Of a stretch of 64,000 bases of DNA, positions 9,549-39,944 are shown one piece after another (within the stretch, counting starts at the first letter, position 1; every line of letters starts with the position of its first letter). Made by a program: the position numbers and the translations under genes. The notes under the pieces were generated by a model. That model saw nothing but the letters and a program-made list of their open reading frames with translations, was not told where the DNA came from and made no database searches. Location: the NCBI GenBank assembly GCA_944327195.1, contig CALVGV010000002.1:14337-78336 (forward strand), written 5' to 3'. Origin of the DNA: an uncultured Limosilactobacillus sp. (GTDB lineage Bacteria; Bacillota; Bacilli; Lactobacillales; Lactobacillaceae).

Positions 9549-9989
9549 TTGCTCATAGAAACCATCAGCCAAAACATTAAAACCCTCGCCGTCCAGGTCG
9601 ATAAGAAGCTCACCGCCCACCTCAAGGCCCAGGGGATCACCCTCACCGGCACCCAGCTGGCGGTCCTCGGGATGGTCTACGACCGCCACGGCGCCCAGCT
9701 GCTCCAAAAAGAGGTCGAAACCCGCCTCCACCTCAGCCACCCCACCACCCGGGGGATCATCAAGCGGTTGGTCAACCTCCAGCTGTTGGTCACCAGCGCC
9801 CCGGCCACCGACAAGCGCCAGGTGGCCCTCCAATTAACCGAAAGTGGCCGCCAGCTCTTCGCCCACTACCAGCCGGGCCTGACAACTTCAGCCGCTCTCC
9901 TGGAGGAACGCTTGCTGGCCGGACTGACAGACGAGGAAATCGCGACCTTGCGCAAGGTGCTGCCACAAATGGTCGCCAACCTCGCCTAA
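9549..9989 (+). CDS. MarR family transcriptional regulator
   Basis: Winged-helix core QLAVLGMVYDRHGAQLLQKEVETRLHLSHPTTRGIIKRL. The start is ambiguous: TTG 9549 is only 2 nt after AGGAGG, and TTG 9534 is also possible. The long N-terminal extension in the ORF track is rejected. Confidence 0.65.
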   Translation: MLIETISQNIKTLAVQVDKKLTAHLKAQGITLTGTQLAVLGMVYDRHGAQLLQKEVETRLHLSHPTTRGIIKRLVNLQLLVTSAPATDKRQVALQLTESGRQLFAHYQPGLTTSAALLEERLLAGLTDEEIATLRKVLPQMVANLA

Positions 9990-16188: not shown

Positions 16189-18576
16189 ATGAAGATCAAC
16201 CAATTCGCCATCGTTCCCACTGCCCTCGCCGACCGGGTGAGTCAGCTGCGCACCCTCCGCTTCCTGCCGGATGACTGGGAGGCGCTCCCCGTCAACCAGC
16301 TCTTCGCCCGCCTACTGGGCGCCACCCAGGTCAACCAGGACCCCGCCAGCCGGGCCCACTTTCTCGCCGGCCTGGCCGCCACGCCAACCCAGTCGGTCCA
16401 GGAATGGTTGGCCAGCGACCAGCCGCTGACGACCGCCGTCTTCGACCTGGTGGCCCTCCAGCTACTCCACTTCACCGCCGGGGTTGACTACCAGCCGGAG
16501 GAGCCAATCGCCGCCGTTGAAAAACTGAACCTCCCCCTTCAGCCGCCGGCCCAGTGGGACCAGGCCGGCTTGGTGAGCGCCTTCTACTCCCTGCTGGTCA
16601 GCCGCAACCACGACGGCTACCGCTACCTCGACCAGCTGGCCGTCGACGGGGTCCTGGCCTGGACCTACGACCTGCCGGCCAGCCAGAAGCCGCTCTTCTT
16701 CAACGGCCAGCCGGTGGCAAGCTTCGACCCGGCCCGCTTCATCCGCGAGGTGGTCTACGTCGAGTCCGACCTCGACACCGACAGCGACGGGATGGCCGAC
16801 CTAGTCAAGGTCGAGGTCATCCGCCCGGCCGATAGCGCCGCCGGCCTGCGGGTGCCGGCCGTCTTCACCGCCAGCCCCTACAACCAGGGGACCAACGACG
16901 CCTGGGGCGAGCGGCTGACTCACCCGGTCAACCACCCAATCACCCACAAGCGGGCAACCGCTGCGGCCCCGGCCGAACCGGTCCTGCCGGCCCCCAAGCA
17001 CCACCACCCGGTAAGTGGTGAGGCCGCGCAAGCCAGCGAGACCTTCAGCGAAACGCCATCCTACACCCTCAACGACTACCTGGCCGCCCGCGGCTACGCG
17101 ATCGTCTACGCCGCCGGGATTGGCACCAAGGATAGCGACGGCCTCCAGACCTGCGGCTCGCCGGAGCAGGTTGCCTCGATGAAAGCGGTCGTCGAGTGGC
17201 TCTACGGCGACCGGCGGGCCTTTACCACCCGAACCGGCGGCCAGACGATCCGCGCCCGCTGGTGCAACGGCAAGGTGGCGATGACCGGCCGCTCCTACCT
17301 CGGCACCCTGGCCACGGCGGTCGCCACCACCGGGGTGGCCGGCCTGGCAACGATCGTCAGCGAGGCGGCGATCTCCAGCTGGTACGACTACTACCGTGAA
17401 AACGGCCTGGTGATGGCCCCGGGCGGCTTCCAGGGCGAGGACGCCGACGTGCTGGCGGCCGAAACCTTCAGTCGGACCGCCAACTTGGCCGACTTCCTGA
17501 AGGTCAAGGACCACAACGCCGCCTACCTGAAGGCGATCGCCGCCGCCCAGGACCGGCAAAGCGGCAACTACAACCCCTTCTGGGCGCGGCGCAACTACCG
17601 GCCGCAGATCGAGCGGATCAAGTGCCCGGTGATGATGGTCCACGGCCTCAACGACGACAACGTCAAGCCCAACCAGGTCAAGGCCCTCTACGACGGGCTG
17701 CAAGCGGCCGGAATCAGCAACAAGCTGATCCTCCACCAGGGCAAGCACATCTACATCAACGCCTTCCCCTCGCTTGACTTCGCCGAGATGATCAACCTCT
17801 GGTTCGCCCACTTCCTCTGGGGAGTGGAGAACGGGGCCGAAATCCTCCTGCCACCGGTCCTGGTCCAGGACAACCGCCAGGCCGACCACTGGCTGACCGC
17901 CGACCGGTGGGACGGGACCCAGACCACCACTTACCGGCTCGCCAGCGGCCGGCTGACCACCGGCCAGGGCGAAGAAACGACCACCTTCTTTTTCGACGGC
18001 CAGCCCGGTGGCCGCTACCAGGCCTGGTGCCGGGATCCCCAGCAATGGCAGGCCGCCCTCCTCAGGGACGAGGGCCACTTCAGCGCCCACTTCTTGACGG
18101 CGCCAATTTCCCGGGAAATAACCCTCAAGGGGACCCCGATCCTCCACGCCCGGGTTAAGGTTGACGCCGACCACGGCCTCCTCTCGGCCTTCCTGGTCGA
18201 CCGAGGCAGCGCCCGCCGGCTGACCGTCAGCCCGGTTGTTTCCGGCCCCCGCCAGCTGCGGGCCGGCTTCCACTTCGGCTGCGACGACCGCCGCGAGTTC
18301 GCGCTGGAGAAGACGGCCAGCGCCGCCAAGGTGATTTCCTTTGGCCACTGCAACCTGCAAAACCGCCACGACCCGGCCACCGTCGACGAGCTGGCAGCCA
18401 ACCAGTTCGTCGACCTCTCCATCCCCCTCCAGCCGGTCTACCACCACCTGGTCGCCGGCCACCAGCTGGAGCTGATTGTCTTTGCCACCGACTACCTGAT
18501 GACCCTCCGCGGCAACGAGCCGCTGACCTACACCCTCGACCTGGCCGCCTGCCAACTGACCATCCCCCACGATTAG
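16189..18576 (+). CDS. pepX: Xaa-Pro dipeptidyl-peptidase (PepX, S15 family)
   Basis: 795 aa. Typical PepX N-terminus MKINQFAIVP and nucleophile elbow GRSYLG. Confidence 0.9.
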   Translation: MKINQFAIVPTALADRVSQLRTLRFLPDDWEALPVNQLFARLLGATQVNQDPASRAHFLAGLAATPTQSVQEWLASDQPLTTAVFDLVALQLLHFTAGVDYQPEEPIAAVEKLNLPLQPPAQWDQAGLVSAFYSLLVSRNHDGYRYLDQLAVDGVLAWTYDLPASQKPLFFNGQPVASFDPARFIREVVYVESDLDTDSDGMADLVKVEVIRPADSAAGLRVPAVFTASPYNQGTNDAWGERLTHPVNHPITHKRATAAAPAEPVLPAPKHHHPVSGEAAQASETFSETPSYTLNDYLAARGYAIVYAAGIGTKDSDGLQTCGSPEQVASMKAVVEWLYGDRRAFTTRTGGQTIRARWCNGKVAMTGRSYLGTLATAVATTGVAGLATIVSEAAISSWYDYYRENGLVMAPGGFQGEDADVLAAETFSRTANLADFLKVKDHNAAYLKAIAAAQDRQSGNYNPFWARRNYRPQIERIKCPVMMVHGLNDDNVKPNQVKALYDGLQAAGISNKLILHQGKHIYINAFPSLDFAEMINLWFAHFLWGVENGAEILLPPVLVQDNRQADHWLTADRWDGTQTTTYRLASGRLTTGQGEETTTFFFDGQPGGRYQAWCRDPQQWQAALLRDEGHFSAHFLTAPISREITLKGTPILHARVKVDADHGLLSAFLVDRGSARRLTVSPVVSGPRQLRAGFHFGCDDRREFALEKTASAAKVISFGHCNLQNRHDPATVDELAANQFVDLSIPLQPVYHHLVAGHQLELIVFATDYLMTLRGNEPLTYTLDLAACQLTIPHD

Positions 18577-19699: not shown

Positions 19700-19713
19700 A
19701 TTTCCCGGGCAAT
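19700..19713. promoter_or_regulatory. Palindrome ATTTCCCGGGCAAT, a one-mismatch copy of the ATTTCCCGGGAAAT motif
   Basis: Lies about 15 nt downstream of an extended -10 (TGATAAAAT, 19676-19684) and about 100 nt upstream of the LtaS-family gene. Confidence 0.35.
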
Positions 19714-23038: not shown

Positions 23039-23212
23039 GAATTGATGCCTCTTTTGTCTTATAATTAAATTGGTTTCATTGTAGCATTTGGTTTGAGAAA
23101 ATGGCAAAGACCGGAAATTTACGATTGTATTCCCTTTCAGAATCCGTTATCATTAAGGGGTAAAACGTTTATTCATCCGGAAGCCAGTTTTCAATCTTTG
23201 GAGGGACCAATT

Positions 23213-24172
23213 ATGGCACAAAAGAAAATGATTCTCGACTTGGACACTGGGGTTGACGACGCCCTGGCGATCGCCTACGCGGTGGCCGCCCCGGACGTTG
23301 ATTTGATCGGGATTGTTTCGTCCTACGGCAACAACCTGCTCAACGTCTGCGCCGAAAACAGCCTCAAGTTGCTCGAACTGCTCGGCCAACCGGACGTCCC
23401 GGTTTACCTCGGCCTGCCGCACTCCAGCACCAGTGACCACTTCGACGTAATGCAGGTGTCCAAGGATATTCACGGCGACAACGGGATCGGCGACGTCGAA
23501 CTGCCGGCCCCGAAGCGCCAAGTGGAAACCGAATCCGGGGTGGACTTCTACATTGAAGCCGCCCACAAGTACGGCAAGGACCTGATCATCATCCCAACCG
23601 GCCCGATGACCAACCTGGCCGCCGCCCTCAAGAAGGACCCGTCAATCGCCGACCTGATCGGCAACGTCACCTTCATGGGTGGGGCGCTGACGGTTGAAGG
23701 GAACGTAACCGACGTGGCCGAAGCCAACATCAACCAGGACGCCAAGGCGGCCAACGAGGTGCTGACCAGCAAGCTGCCGCTGACGATGGTTGGCCTCGAC
23801 GTGACCCTGCGGACCCTGCTGACCAAGAAGGAAACCCAGCAGTGGCGCGACCTCGGCACCAAGGCCGGCAAGGCATACGCCGACATCACCGACTTCTACA
23901 TCGACGCCTACTACAACCTGAACATCGACAAGAACGGTTGCGCCCTCCACGACCCGCTGGCGGTTGGGGTTTCCCTCGACCCGTCCTTCGTTCAAACGAT
24001 CTCCCTCTTCATGAAGGTTATCTACGACGAACACAACTACGGCCGCACGATCGGCGACAAGGACCGCCTCAACGAACCGAACCCGAACGTCAAGGTGGCC
24101 GTCAACGTCGACAAGGACCGTTACCTGGCAACCTTCATGGACCTGCTGACCAACCTCTTCAAGGAACACTAA
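23213..24172 (+). CDS. Nucleoside hydrolase (IUNH/RihC-like)
   Basis: N-terminal DLDTGVDDALA (DxDxxxDD) motif. ATG 23213 follows GGAGGG. Confidence 0.85.
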   Translation: MAQKKMILDLDTGVDDALAIAYAVAAPDVDLIGIVSSYGNNLLNVCAENSLKLLELLGQPDVPVYLGLPHSSTSDHFDVMQVSKDIHGDNGIGDVELPAPKRQVETESGVDFYIEAAHKYGKDLIIIPTGPMTNLAAALKKDPSIADLIGNVTFMGGALTVEGNVTDVAEANINQDAKAANEVLTSKLPLTMVGLDVTLRTLLTKKETQQWRDLGTKAGKAYADITDFYIDAYYNLNIDKNGCALHDPLAVGVSLDPSFVQTISLFMKVIYDEHNYGRTIGDKDRLNEPNPNVKVAVNVDKDRYLATFMDLLTNLFKEH

Positions 24173-24189: not shown

Positions 24190-24220
24190 GGCTCCCGCCC
24201 CGCCGGCGGGAGCCTTTTTG
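24190..24220 (+). terminator. Intrinsic terminator after the nucleoside hydrolase gene
   Basis: GGCTCCCGCC-N5-GGCGGGAGCC followed by TTTTT. Confidence 0.75.
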
Positions 24221-24331
24221 TATCTTCTGATCCACGGTTCGTGGCCTCATTTTGTGCAACTTTCTCTGATTTTGTTCTCCACCACGTACCGTGGCCTTCA
24301 AATTGGTCCCTCATTCCGGGACGGCCGCAAC

Positions 24332-24493
24332 TTATCCACCGAATTTTCCCCTTATCCCCAAAATCTTGTGGATAACCACCCCAACTTATCCCCCGTTCGC
24401 TACCCCCATTACGAGGGTTATTCCCGGACTTGCCGGAGTGTTGTTCACAACTTTTCCACCACTTGTGGACAACCGGTGGAAAAGTTATCCCCT
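24332..24493. promoter_or_regulatory. Cluster of eight DnaA-box-like 9-mers
   Basis: TTATCCACC 24332, TTATCCCCA 24352, TGTGGATAA 24367 (perfect, reverse), TTATCCCCC 24386, TTGTTCACA 24441, TTTTCCACC 24452, TGTGGACAA 24464, TTATCCCCT 24485. A 12-bp inverted repeat AACTTTTCCACC/GGTGGAAAAGTT lies at 24449-24486. Confidence 0.6.
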
Positions 24494-24505: not shown

Positions 24506-24534
24506 TTGCCAAGTGAAGCCGCTTCCGCTAGAAT
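24506..24534 (+). promoter_or_regulatory. Promoter of the TPP-riboswitch/ykoEDC transcript
   Basis: TTGCCA, 17 nt, TAGAAT. Confidence 0.6.
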
Positions 24535-24544
24535 GGAGGTATCA

Positions 24545-24628
24545 ATTACCATGTCTGGGGTGCCTTTGGCTGAGATGATACCCATTAACCTGATCTGGTT
24601 AGTACCAGCGTAGGGAGACGGTCCGTTA
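24545..24628 (+). promoter_or_regulatory. TPP (THI-box) riboswitch aptamer
   Basis: CTGGGGTGC...GCTGAGA...ACCC...AACCTGATCTGGTTAGTACCAGCGTAGGGA matches the THI-element core. A terminator follows directly. Confidence 0.85.
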
Positions 24629-24650
24629 ATTCTTTGGGATAAAACCCAAA

Positions 24651-24682
24651 AAGCCCCCGGAGCGGTTTCCGGGGGCTTTTTT
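24651..24682 (+). terminator. Riboswitch expression-platform terminator
   Basis: AAGCCCCCGG-N8-CCGGGGGC followed by TTTTTT. Confidence 0.75.
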
Positions 24683-24725: not shown

Positions 24726-25295
24726 ATGCACACCACTCGTTACCACCTCAAGGACATCATCCTGCTGGCGCTGATCGGGATCATCTTCGGGGTGATCTAC
24801 TACGCCGGCGACTTCCTCTACAACGGCTTCACCATCCTCTTGACCCCCTTCGGCCTCGGCCCGATGGCCAACGACCTGACGATGGGCCTCTGGTGCATGG
24901 CCGGGCCGCTGGCCGCCATGCTCCTCCAACGGCCGGGGGCGGCCTTCTTCGGCGAATTTCTCGGCGCCGCCGGCGAAATGTTTCTCGGCGGCCAGTGGGG
25001 GGCGGCCAACCTGATCTCTGGCTTCGTCCAGGGGATCGCCACCGAGCTCGGCTTCACCTTCACCGGCTACCGGCGCTACAACTGGTTCTCGCTGACCCTG
25101 ACCACGCTGACCGCCACCCTGGTCACCTTCGGCTGGGACTGGTTCCGCAACGGCTACGCCCACTTCAGCGGCCAGCTCGACCTGCTCCTGCTTGGCGCCC
25201 GCTTCGTTTCGATCTTCCTCTTCTCCGGCGTGCTGGTAAAGCTGATCAGCAACCTGCTGGTTCGCGCCCACGTGATCAAGACCGTTCGCTCATGA
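24726..25295 (+). CDS. ykoE: ECF-type thiamine-precursor (HMP/thiamine) transporter, substrate-capture component YkoE-like
   Basis: 189-aa 6-TM protein directly behind the TPP riboswitch, with AGGAGG 8 nt upstream. ATGA overlap with the next gene. Confidence 0.7.
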   Translation: MHTTRYHLKDIILLALIGIIFGVIYYAGDFLYNGFTILLTPFGLGPMANDLTMGLWCMAGPLAAMLLQRPGAAFFGEFLGAAGEMFLGGQWGAANLISGFVQGIATELGFTFTGYRRYNWFSLTLTTLTATLVTFGWDWFRNGYAHFSGQLDLLLLGARFVSIFLFSGVLVKLISNLLVRAHVIKTVRS

Positions 25296-26680
25296 CTCAA
25301 GCAATCGACCTCCAGAAGCTCACCTTTTCCTACCAGGCGGGCAAGCCGGTCCTTGCCATCGACCAGCTGACCATCCCCCGCGGGCGGCTGATCCTCTTCT
25401 CCGGCCCCTCCGGCAGCGGCAAGAGCACCCTCTTGCGCCTGCTGGCCGGCCTCTTGCCCAAGTACGGCGGCAAGCTCGCCCCGGGGGCCCGACTGAACCT
25501 GACCGCCGGCGAGTGCGGCCTGATGTTTCAGGACCCCGGCCTCCAGTTCGCCCTCGACACCCCGCGCCACGAGCTCGAGTTCACCCTCGAAAACGACCGC
25601 GTCCCCGCCGGTGAAATCCCGGCCCGGGTGACGACCGCCCTTAAGGCCGCCGGGATTGAAGCGTTGGCCGACCGCCAGCTGGCCACCCTCTCCGGTGGGG
25701 AGCAGCAGCGGGCCGCCCTGGCCGTCCTCTTGGCCCTGGACCGGCCCCTTCTCTTACTCGACGAGCCCTTCGCCAGCCTCGATGTTGCCAACCGCCACCA
25801 GCTGATGGCCCGCCTCGTCGACCAGGTGGCCGCCGGCAAGACGGTGATCATCGCCGACCACGACCTGGCCGGCTACCGCCAGTACCGGCCGCTGGTGGTC
25901 GCCTTTGACCAGGGGAGCGCCCGCCTGCTGGAAGCGGCCGCGGCCGACCAACGGCTGGCGGCCGCCGACCGGCCGGTGACCATCCCGGCCCGGCCAACGG
26001 CTGCCTTCGCCCCCGCCCTCACCGGTGAGGACCTCCGCCTGGCCCACGGCGACCAGGAGCTACTGGTCCAGCCGACCCTGGCCCTGCCCAAGGAAAGGAT
26101 CACCCTGCTGACCGGCGAATCGGGCAGCGGCAAGTCGACCTTCCTGAGCGCCCTGGCCCGCCTTTCCCCCTACCAGGGGCAGTTGATCTACGCCGGCAAG
26201 GAGCTTTCCCGCTTCTCGCGCCGCCGCTGGGGGCGGACGGTCGGCCTGGTCTTCCAGCACGCCAGCGACCAGTTTCTCAACGTCACCGTTGGCGAGGAGC
26301 TGGCCCTCAGCCAACGCCAGGGGCGCCAGCCCTACTTCACCCCGACCAAGCTAGCGGCCGCCCTGGACCAGCTGGGGCTGGCCGGCCTCGAGGAGCGGGT
26401 GGTCTACTCACTCTCCGGCGGCCAGCAAAAGAAGCTCCAGCTGCTGGTGATGCTGATGATGGGCCAGCCGGTCCTCCTGCTCGACGAACCCTTCGCCGGC
26501 CTCGATCCCGCTTCGGTCGCAGCCGTCAAGGAGCTGATCAATGCCTGCCAGGCTTGCCAGCCGGCAACGATCGTGCTGGTTTCCCACCAGCTCGCCGGCC
26601 TGGCCGGTTGGGTCGACTGCCACCTTCACCTGACCCAGCGCTATTTCACCGATCAAGGGAGGGTTGACCATGAATCCTAG
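25292..26680 (+). CDS. ykoD: ECF/ABC transporter ATPase with duplicated ATP-binding domains (YkoD-like)
   Basis: Two Walker A motifs (GPSGSGKST, GESGSGKST) and two signatures ([16 protein letters not shown]). The start at 25292 is in frame within track ORF 24698-26680, whose upstream part overlaps ykoE and is rejected. Confidence 0.8.
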   Translation: MTQAIDLQKLTFSYQAGKPVLAIDQLTIPRGRLILFSGPSGSGKSTLLRLLAGLLPKYGGKLAPGARLNLTAGECGLMFQDPGLQFALDTPRHELEFTLENDRVPAGEIPARVTTALKAAGIEALADRQLATLSGGEQQRAALAVLLALDRPLLLLDEPFASLDVANRHQLMARLVDQVAAGKTVIIADHDLAGYRQYRPLVVAFDQGSARLLEAAAADQRLAAADRPVTIPARPTAAFAPALTGEDLRLAHGDQELLVQPTLALPKERITLLTGESGSGKSTFLSALARLSPYQGQLIYAGKELSRFSRRRWGRTVGLVFQHASDQFLNVTVGEELALSQRQGRQPYFTPTKLAAALDQLGLAGLEERVVYSLSGGQQKKLQLLVMLMMGQPVLLLDEPFAGLDPASVAAVKELINACQACQPATIVLVSHQLAGLAGWVDCHLHLTQRYFTDQGRVDHES

Positions 26681-27323
26681 TCTCAAACTCTTTTTGGTGC
26701 TGATCATCTCGGTTGAAGTTTCCTTCACCAGCAAGCTGACCGTCAACCTCCTGCTGGTCGCCGCCGGTCTGATCCTCCTGCTTTGGACCCGCCCGAGCGG
26801 CCTGACCCTGACCCACCTGCTGCTGATCCCGGCGATCCCGGCCGGCGCCCTGGCACTGACGGTCGGCGCCTTCACCCCGGCCCACGACTGGTTCTTTGCC
26901 GCCGTGCTGGCCAGCCGGGTCTACGTCTACGTCCTGCTCGGCAGCGCCGTCACCCGGACGACCCCGCCGCTGACCCTGGCCCGCTCGCTGGAGCAAAACT
27001 GCCACCTGCCGGCCAAGTTTGCCTACGGAACCCTGGCGGCGATCAACCTCCTGCCGCGGATAATCCGCGCGGTCAAGACGATCAAGGCCGCCGGCCAGAT
27101 GCGCGGGGTGACCCTCTCCTTCTGGTCGCCGCGCCTCTACTTCAAGGCGATCCTGAGCGCGATTTCCTGGGCCGACCAACTGGCCCAGGCGATGGAGTCG
27201 CACGGCTTCGTGGAGGACCAGCCGCGCAGCCAGGCCCAGGTCATCCCGCTGACCGGCCGCGACTGGGCGCTTGGCGCAAGCGCCCTCCTGCTGGTCCAGC
27301 TCGCCCTGGTGGCCCTCCCCTAA
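26664..27323 (+). CDS. ykoC: ECF transporter transmembrane (T) component (YkoC/CbiQ-like)
   Basis: 219-aa multi-TM protein overlapping the ATPase stop. ATG 26670 is an alternative start. Confidence 0.7.
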   Translation: MTMNPSLKLFLVLIISVEVSFTSKLTVNLLLVAAGLILLLWTRPSGLTLTHLLLIPAIPAGALALTVGAFTPAHDWFFAAVLASRVYVYVLLGSAVTRTTPPLTLARSLEQNCHLPAKFAYGTLAAINLLPRIIRAVKTIKAAGQMRGVTLSFWSPRLYFKAILSAISWADQLAQAMESHGFVEDQPRSQAQVIPLTGRDWALGASALLLVQLALVALP

Positions 27324-29394: not shown

Positions 29395-29408
29395 ATTTCC
29401 CGGGAAAT
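29395..29408. promoter_or_regulatory. Exact palindrome ATTTCCCGGGAAAT
   Basis: Read directly from the sequence. It lies between two convergent genes, next to terminator hairpin 29350-29390. Confidence 0.35.
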
Positions 29409-30492: not shown

Positions 30493-30915
30493 ATGTTTCC
30501 AGAACGCCTGCGGGCCCTGCGACGGGGCCAAAAGATTACCCTCAAGGAACTAGCCAACGAGTTAAACCAGCACCTCGGCCCCGGGGAGAAGCCCAATTCG
30601 GCCACCCAGATCGGCAACTGGGAGCGCGGCATCCGCACCCCCTCCTACATCGAGGCCCGCAAGCTGGCCGAGTTCTTCGACGTCAGCCTCGACTATTTAA
30701 CCGGCAAGTCGAGCCACAACGACTACGACCTGGCCAAGCTCTTCTTCTCCAGCCGCGATCTGACCTTCAACCAGACCGTGCTGACCAGCGAGGACCGCTA
30801 CGAAATCTTCCAGCTGATCGACGGCTACCTCAAGGGGCGGAGCAACCGGGCAAACCGGCCAACCACCCCGCCGGAGTTCGGCACCCAAGAAGACCTGCAC
30901 CTGAAGTTTAAGTGA
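30493..30915 (+). CDS. XRE-family helix-turn-helix transcriptional regulator
   Basis: HTH_3-type N-terminus LRALRRGQKITLKELANEL...QIGNWERG.RTPSY...LAEFFDVSLDYL. ATG 30493 lies inside track ORF 29725-30915. Confidence 0.8.
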   Translation: MFPERLRALRRGQKITLKELANELNQHLGPGEKPNSATQIGNWERGIRTPSYIEARKLAEFFDVSLDYLTGKSSHNDYDLAKLFFSSRDLTFNQTVLTSEDRYEIFQLIDGYLKGRSNRANRPTTPPEFGTQEDLHLKFK

Positions 30916-35917: not shown

Positions 35918-35931
35918 ATTTCCCGGGAAAT
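35918..35931. promoter_or_regulatory. Exact palindrome ATTTCCCGGGAAAT in a divergent promoter region
   Basis: Lies 82 nt upstream of the hydrolase ATG and 114 nt upstream of the DUF956 ATG. Confidence 0.4.
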
Positions 35932-39930: not shown

Positions 39931-39944
39931 ATTTCCCGGGAAAT
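39931..39944. promoter_or_regulatory. Exact palindrome ATTTCCCGGGAAAT upstream of the two-component operon
   Basis: Lies 104 nt upstream of the response-regulator ATG. A related CCCGGGAAATTTCCGGG at 39967-39983 sits inside the tetR terminator hairpin. Confidence 0.4.

Follow-up and report, generated by a model that had tools for sequence, protein, structure and literature searches.

What is a dense array of DnaA boxes doing in the spacer between a nucleoside hydrolase gene and a TPP riboswitch-ykoEDC unit, in a bacterium that keeps dnaA elsewhere on its chromosome? We examined this locus in a 1.79-Mb draft genome of an uncultured Limosilactobacillus (52 contigs, 60% GC), working outwards from a 64-kb stretch of contig C2 (C2:14337-78336), referred to here as the window, and comparing it with relatives, among which the nearest orthologues of the flanking genes are found in L. 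alvi and L. ingluviei. Judging from the sequence comparisons, with a probability of roughly 0.55, the array is a Bacillus subtilis-type DnaA-box cluster (DBC): about nine DnaA sites, under selection in an apparently origin-proximal intergenic spacer, that would dampen the initiation of replication. Perhaps the array also modulates local transcription. Elements of this kind are well established in B. subtilis and Escherichia coli and have not yet been described in lactobacilli. In the literature searched, no paper deals with DnaA-box clusters in Lactobacillus or with DnaA boxes in Limosilactobacillus, in keeping with the original prediction, whose author was not aware of an equivalent in lactobacilli. 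To our knowledge, replication-initiation control in lactic acid bacteria is almost unstudied.

The features of the locus, and the distant elements to which it is compared, are collected in Table 1. The hydrolase gene lies outside the array and served as the synteny anchor, with orthologues 70-94% identical in 80 Lactobacillaceae loci. As the original prediction had placed it, the array lies between the hydrolase terminator and the promoter of the riboswitch-ykoEDC unit, and the last box stands 12 bp from the -35 element. The T component and the 27323 end of ykoEDC were read from the list of open reading frames. In the 20-30 kb part of the window, only the TPP riboswitch reached the Rfam threshold, and no open reading frame was conserved across the spacers of the seven species compared below, which leaves no candidate for a hidden gene. 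The GC skew of the window is ambiguous (-0.05 to -0.13, then about 0). The genome has a GC content of 60%, as against a local GC of 37-56% at the other Limosilactobacillus loci sampled, and even so it retains its AT-rich DnaA boxes, the promoter of the riboswitch, and its unwinding element.

Table 1. Features of the array, its neighbourhood, and related elements elsewhere. Plain numbers are window positions; C denotes a contig of this genome (G000).
Feature	Position	Strand	Details
Inosine-uridine-preferring nucleoside hydrolase gene	23093..24172	+	PF01156, E 7e-87
Hydrolase intrinsic terminator	24190..24214	+	10-bp stem, 9 GC pairs, then TTTTTGT
Palindrome 1	24232..24244		CCACGGTTCGTGG, 13 bp; putative XRE operator
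Palindrome 2	24282..24294		CCACGTACCGTGG, 13 bp; -10-like TCAAAT 3 nt further on
Sub-cluster 1	24332-24394		4 boxes: 24332, 24352, 24367, 24386
DnaA box	24332-40	+	1 mismatch, TTATCCACC
DnaA box	24352-60	+	1 mismatch, TTATCCCCA
DnaA box	24367-75	-	0 mismatches, TTATCCACA
DnaA box	24386-94	+	2 mismatches, TTATCCCCC
Sub-cluster 2	24441-24493		5 boxes, start-to-start spacing 10-12 bp: 24441, 24452, 24464, 24475, 24485
DnaA box	24441-49	+	2 mismatches, TTGTTCACA
DnaA box	24452-60	+	2 mismatches, TTTTCCACC
DnaA box	24464-72	-	1 mismatch, TTGTCCACA
DnaA box	24475-83	-	2 mismatches, TTTTCCACC
DnaA box	24485-93	+	2 mismatches, TTATCCCCT
Sigma-70-type promoter of riboswitch-ykoEDC unit	24506..24534	+	TTGCCA-17-TAGAAT, 10/12 matches
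TPP riboswitch aptamer	24546-24633	+	RF00059, 64.6 bits
Riboswitch terminator	24648-24681		Terminator-like hairpin; scan reports minus strand
ykoEDC-type ECF uptake genes	24726..27323	+	PF09819 (YkoE S component, ykoE, starts 24726), PF00005 (duplicated ABC ATPase)
Palindrome on extended -10 promoter of XRE gene	30441-53		CCACGCTCCGTGG; promoter TGtTACAAT
XRE-family HTH regulator gene	30493-30915	+	PF01381; 6 kb downstream of array
ATTTCCCGGGAAAT, exact copies in window	18106-18119, 29395-29408, 35918-35931, 39931-39944		
ATTTCCCGGGAAAT, copy with 1 mismatch	19700-19713		
dnaA-flank box clusters (oriC)	C5:8031-8400 and 9733-9830		200-bp window scan
Second non-origin DnaA-box cluster	G000:C5:40600-40910		HtrA-like protease gene / rlmH (PF02590) spacer
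parS-like sites	C5:27059, C5:28978, C18:29398, C18:35269, C10:54916, C27:7817, C33:12207		TGTTNCACGTGAAACA, at most 1 mismatch

Matching against the consensus TTATCCACA, with up to two mismatches and on both strands, identified nine DnaA boxes within 162 bp (24332-24493), of which one is perfect, three have one mismatch, and five have two. The original prediction had counted eight; its perfect box and its three one-mismatch boxes stand, and its four two-mismatch boxes have to be raised to five. Within the first sub-cluster, the boxes at 24352, 24367, and 24386 form a triad arranged as box > 6 bp < box 8-10 bp box >. An inverted repeat of 12 bp without mismatches, described earlier (24449-60 / 24475-86), was recovered, and its arms are made up of two opposed boxes with their AAC flanks; this repeat, together with the boxes at 24475 and 24485, is peculiar to this genome. 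Comparison with the dnaA flanks and the rlmH spacer shows that the box variants in the spacer are those of the organism's own oriC (TTWTCCMCA with an A/C-T 5' flank). The array has a GC content of 49%. It has the makeup by which a DBC is recognized, several TTATNCACA-like boxes grouped in non-coding, non-origin DNA.

Such a grouping is not expected by chance. Boxes with at most two mismatches occur genome-wide at a density of 0.00145 per position, counting both strands, so that 0.23 would be expected in 162 bp against the nine observed (Poisson P ~5e-12); the excess claimed originally is confirmed, and the expectation of 0.4 given with it is corrected downwards. The 64-kb window contains six boxes with at most one mismatch, and four of these fall between 24332 and 24493. 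The whole genome holds 12 perfect and 128 one-mismatch boxes, and seven or more boxes per 200 bp are reached at only three loci, namely the dnaA flanks, the rlmH spacer, and the ykoEDC spacer. When the pattern was relaxed to TT[ATG]T[CT]C[AC]C[ACT], using variants taken from oriC, the ykoEDC-spacer locus ranked first in the genome. Two of the 12 perfect boxes (C16:167 and C22:130) lie within 170 bp of contig ends, and may be part of a repeated or unassembled element.

The label "orphan" given to the array in the original prediction applies at the scale of the window and not at that of the chromosome. Neither dnaA nor dnaN is found at the array, as had been stated, dnaA being located on contig C5, and that same contig carries a second non-origin cluster about 31 kb from dnaA, upstream of rlmH, with four perfect boxes and several near-perfect ones. 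This cluster is the positional counterpart of DBC[yydA-yycS] of B. subtilis, in which yydA is rlmH and which is the strongest of the B. subtilis clusters. In the relative G015, five perfect boxes about 25 kb from dnaA (C121:68140-68366) are a candidate equivalent of the rlmH cluster. The genome also encodes YabA (PF06156, 97.9 bits, G000:C14:23701-24000).

We sought to learn whether the array is conserved, since its absence from close relatives with the same synteny had been named as an outcome that would speak against it. At least six further species of Limosilactobacillus have it in the matching spacer: L. ingluviei, L. gorillae, Ca. L. merdigallinarum, and the species represented by genomes G011, G013, and G014. 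Box enrichment was seen in all seven species, with local Poisson P values (at most two mismatches) from 2.5e-2 in G011 to 3.5e-14 in the present genome. The densest version belongs to L. ingluviei, in which 357 bp contain one perfect box and eight with a single mismatch (L024, 4030-4390), and at the other end L. gorillae, G013, and G011 go down to two boxes with at most one mismatch plus a few weaker ones. An alignment of the seven spacers (A1) has a mean column identity of 52% and a local GC content ranging from 40% to 62%. Its invariant columns are those of two palindromes described below, the perfect box, the head-to-head pair 24452/24464, and the promoter hexamers; in the riboswitch promoter, the TTG of the -35 element and the T, A..A, and T positions of the -10 element are invariant. 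The order and orientation of the triad are maintained in six of the seven species. The alignment shows that the boxes keep their place and orientation in seven species as the intervening DNA drifts, and the persistence of AT-rich boxes in a genome of 60% GC argues for selection on them.

The gene order surrounding the array is more widely distributed than the array itself. The succession of hydrolase, TPP riboswitch, and ykoE was found in Limosilactobacillus and Paucilactobacillus, and is old. Boxes are absent from L. vaginalis, L. portuensis, L. fastidiosus, L. agrestimuris, L. urinaemulieris, L. equigenerosi, and Paucilactobacillus species, in which the gene order is identical and the spacer measures 211-316 bp, the whole block of ~300 bp being missing. 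The 703-bp spacer of L. gastricus holds no boxes either, and no cluster was detected where genes intervene between hydrolase and riboswitch, as in L. reuteri, L. pontis, L. mucosae, and L. oris, among others. In L. pontis, L. reuteri, and species like them, lone "boxes" about 350 bp 5' of the riboswitch are located inside an inserted gene for a 261-aa membrane protein, and were set aside as chance or coding matches. Since more distant species with the same gene order do without it, the array is lineage-restricted. On the hydrolase gene tree, its distribution requires at least two to three gains or losses, a single-gene tree that fits one old gain followed by losses as well as several independent gains. 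This presence and absence in an identical gene order provides a natural experiment on how a cluster is gained, strengthened (as in L. ingluviei), and lost.

Because our own assembly is a draft, the distance of the array from oriC was inferred from G013, a relative assembled as a single contig of 1,887,974 bp, whose neighbourhood is collinear with positions 19.8-30.8 kb of the window. In G013, dnaA and its flanking box clusters lie at 59.4-61.1 kb, the rlmH cluster at 83.3-83.6 kb, and the ykoEDC-spacer array at 1,811.15-1,811.3 kb. If this contig represents a closed circle, about 136 kb separate the array from oriC, a distance equal to 7.2% of the chromosome.

These properties resemble those of the DBCs of B. 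subtilis, which are intergenic, contain multiple boxes in mixed orientation, lack an unwinding element, and are adjacent to promoters (PMC3245932). In Bacillus, such clusters lie upstream of different genes depending on the species, almost all of them near oriC (PMC3245932). They are stably bound by DnaA and jointly restrain initiation, and some control the adjacent promoter (PMC3245932; PMC4447404). Deletion of all six clusters from B. subtilis leads to early initiation, whereas single deletions mostly have little effect (PMC3245932). Our array would share the origin-proximal location, as judged from G013 read as a closed circle, and has a host that encodes YabA and also carries the yydA (rlmH) cluster. 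It differs from the B. subtilis clusters in being flanked by a nucleoside hydrolase gene and a TPP riboswitch-ykoEDC unit, in its confinement to some Limosilactobacillus lineages, in having only one perfect box, and in the two palindromic putative XRE-type operators at its side. The B. subtilis-like sequence features, the rlmH counterpart, and YabA together favour reading the array as a putative DnaA sink and control site. What counts against this reading is that five of the boxes have two mismatches and only one is perfect, and that many Limosilactobacillus species with a matching gene order do without the array. The sequence-testable parts of the original prediction nevertheless hold: the cluster is non-random, away from dnaA and dnaN, conserved, and like a B. 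subtilis DBC.

The B. subtilis model suggests how such a cluster would act. DnaA, probably cooperatively and as ATP-DnaA, would occupy the array, which, being replicated early, would double in copy number soon after initiation and draw DnaA away from oriC. The array, the rlmH cluster, and YabA would together delay re-initiation. DnaA bound at -13 to -175 relative to the -35 element might in addition modulate the TPP-riboswitch/ykoEDC promoter or block transcription coming in from upstream. In L. gorillae, G013, and G011, any titration role would be small, because few boxes are left. Another known system, datA of E. coli, is likewise a DnaA-box cluster near oriC, with no sequence relationship to the array. 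Once replicated, the datA locus is believed to reduce the pool of DnaA competent for initiation. It acts with IHF to promote hydrolysis of DnaA-bound ATP. Bacillota, as far as we know, have no IHF. For B. subtilis, the lack of IHF is reported (PMC13220808). To test whether the Bacillus mechanism operates in Lactobacillaceae, the array and the rlmH cluster offer two concrete candidate loci that could be deleted, with the L. ingluviei version of the array as the best experimental subject; the practical consequences are modest.

Two 13-bp palindromes lie between the hydrolase terminator and the first box. Both are conserved in every array-bearing species, so that the ~300-bp block behaves as one module; columns C110-C113 and G119-T120 of palindrome 2 are invariant in A1, and it is followed in five of the seven species by a -10-like TnAAAT. 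Further downstream, a palindrome of the same type overlaps the extended -10 promoter from which an XRE-family regulator would be transcribed, an arrangement also found in G013, G014, G015, and G016, and degenerate palindromes (CACACTTTCTGTTAC) occur upstream of the orthologous XRE gene in other Limosilactobacillus species. The XRE gene is coupled to a methyltransferase-like gene. It was detected in 23 of 25 genomes of the genus (our own and 24 relatives), and all 16 genomes searched from other families lacked it; being genus-wide, it does not serve as a marker of array-bearing species. The motif CCACGnnnCGTGG has nine exact copies in the genome. Two of them are enclosed by longer inverted repeats that are GC-rich and run into a stretch of T, as in terminators, and a third is enclosed by a similar GC-rich repeat. 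A fourth copy falls in coding sequence, and a fifth in the spacer that separates a malic/malolactic-type enzyme gene (named from sequence only) from a divergent regulator gene. We therefore rejected it as a general regulon motif, as only the copy on the XRE promoter and the two beside the array look operator-like. The CCACGnnnCGTGG palindrome is likely an autoregulatory XRE operator with two extra target sites beside the array, and the nearby XRE repressor probably binds palindromes 1 and 2. The palindromes were also considered, and rejected, as degenerate DnaA boxes, with which they have only a CCAC core in common, and as parS, the true sites of which (TGTTNCACGTGAAACA) are located elsewhere and never on the contig of the window.

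It is possible, if doubtful, that the array serves mainly in transcriptional control, DnaA and the XRE repressor tuning the ykoEDC thiamine-precursor transporter and any effect on initiation being incidental. Such control could be exerted on the riboswitch promoter itself, or a weak promoter beside palindrome 2, where the -10-like TnAAAT stands, could be blocked. That the boxes stop just short of the -35 element and that the XRE gene's own promoter carries the same palindrome type agree with this, as does the fact that in B. subtilis DnaA, acting directly from clusters of this kind, is an activator of sda and a repressor of ywlC, yydA, and others (PMC4447404; PMC3245932). However, the gap between the conserved box pair and the -35 element varies among species from about 10 to about 70 bp, which argues against a precise promoter geometry as the main constraint. 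Moreover, species lacking the array retain promoter, riboswitch, and operon; the riboswitch promoter was the only one found by the promoter scan; and the boxes all lie upstream of the -35 element, an unusual place for a repressor to act. A reading of the minus-strand boxes as extended -10 promoters (TGTGnATAAT) is plausible in some AT-rich relatives, but the boxes of this genome do not fit the pattern (TGTGGACAA, TGTGGATAAC), so it is not the conserved constraint.

We consider it distinctly unlikely that the array is a functionless, decaying relic of an old origin-like or mobile-element region, inserted in an ancestor and eroding at lineage-specific rates. Erosion would account for the patchy distribution on the hydrolase tree, for the number of boxes with at most one mismatch, which ranges from 2 to 9 between species, and for the complete loss of the block from the short spacers. 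It does not sit well with an alignment in which boxes are invariant columns while the spacers are down to 52% identity and local GC spans 40% to 62%, with the survival of AT-rich boxes, in an array of 49% GC, within a 60% GC genome, or with the order and orientation of the triad. In addition, the list of open reading frames and the family searches gave no mobile-element genes near the array, and a BLAST of the spacer against our own genome and 40 relatives returned only pieces of the riboswitch and terminator, with no detectable homology to oriC or another locus, and a duplication of either was rejected on this ground.

Very improbable, in our estimate, is that the core is a DARS-like or other nucleotide-state-switching DnaA site in Bacillota, a group not known to have any, or that the whole module, with its two XRE operators and the DnaA array ahead of the riboswitch promoter, is a composite switch tying thiamine-precursor uptake to replication status. 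The triad core, in which a consensus box and a weaker box stand head-to-head and a third box is added, is kept even where the remaining array has decayed. The core of E. coli DARS also has three boxes, with I and II head-to-head across a 5-bp gap and III head-to-tail with II (PMC6868365), and in both DARS1/DARS2 and the array a consensus middle box stands head-to-head with a weaker neighbour (6-bp gap here). The third box of the array, however, opposes the middle one, unlike DARS box III, and many additional boxes surround the core. DARS elements have been reported as absent from B. subtilis (PMC13220808).

We give next to no weight to a second or dormant origin: the dense mixed-orientation array is like that of oriC, but it has neither DnaA-trios nor an AT-rich unwinding element (AT maximum 70% in 27 bp) and so cannot fire, it lies away from dnaA and dnaN, and contig C5 carries the true oriC, bipartite and intact, with dnaA flanked on either side by box clusters and with a box, a GC cluster, and DnaA-trios (CTACTACCACTACTA) followed by a 27-mer of 100% AT.

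Two further observations concern the wider chromosome. The sequence ATTTCCCGGGAAAT, which we take to be the consensus Noc-binding site of B. subtilis, has 27 exact copies in the genome, four of them in the 64-kb window against 0.03 expected, an abundance that fits an origin-proximal chromosome region. Seven parS-like sites are present in the genome, and two of these (C5:27059 and 28978) are 17-19 kb from dnaA.
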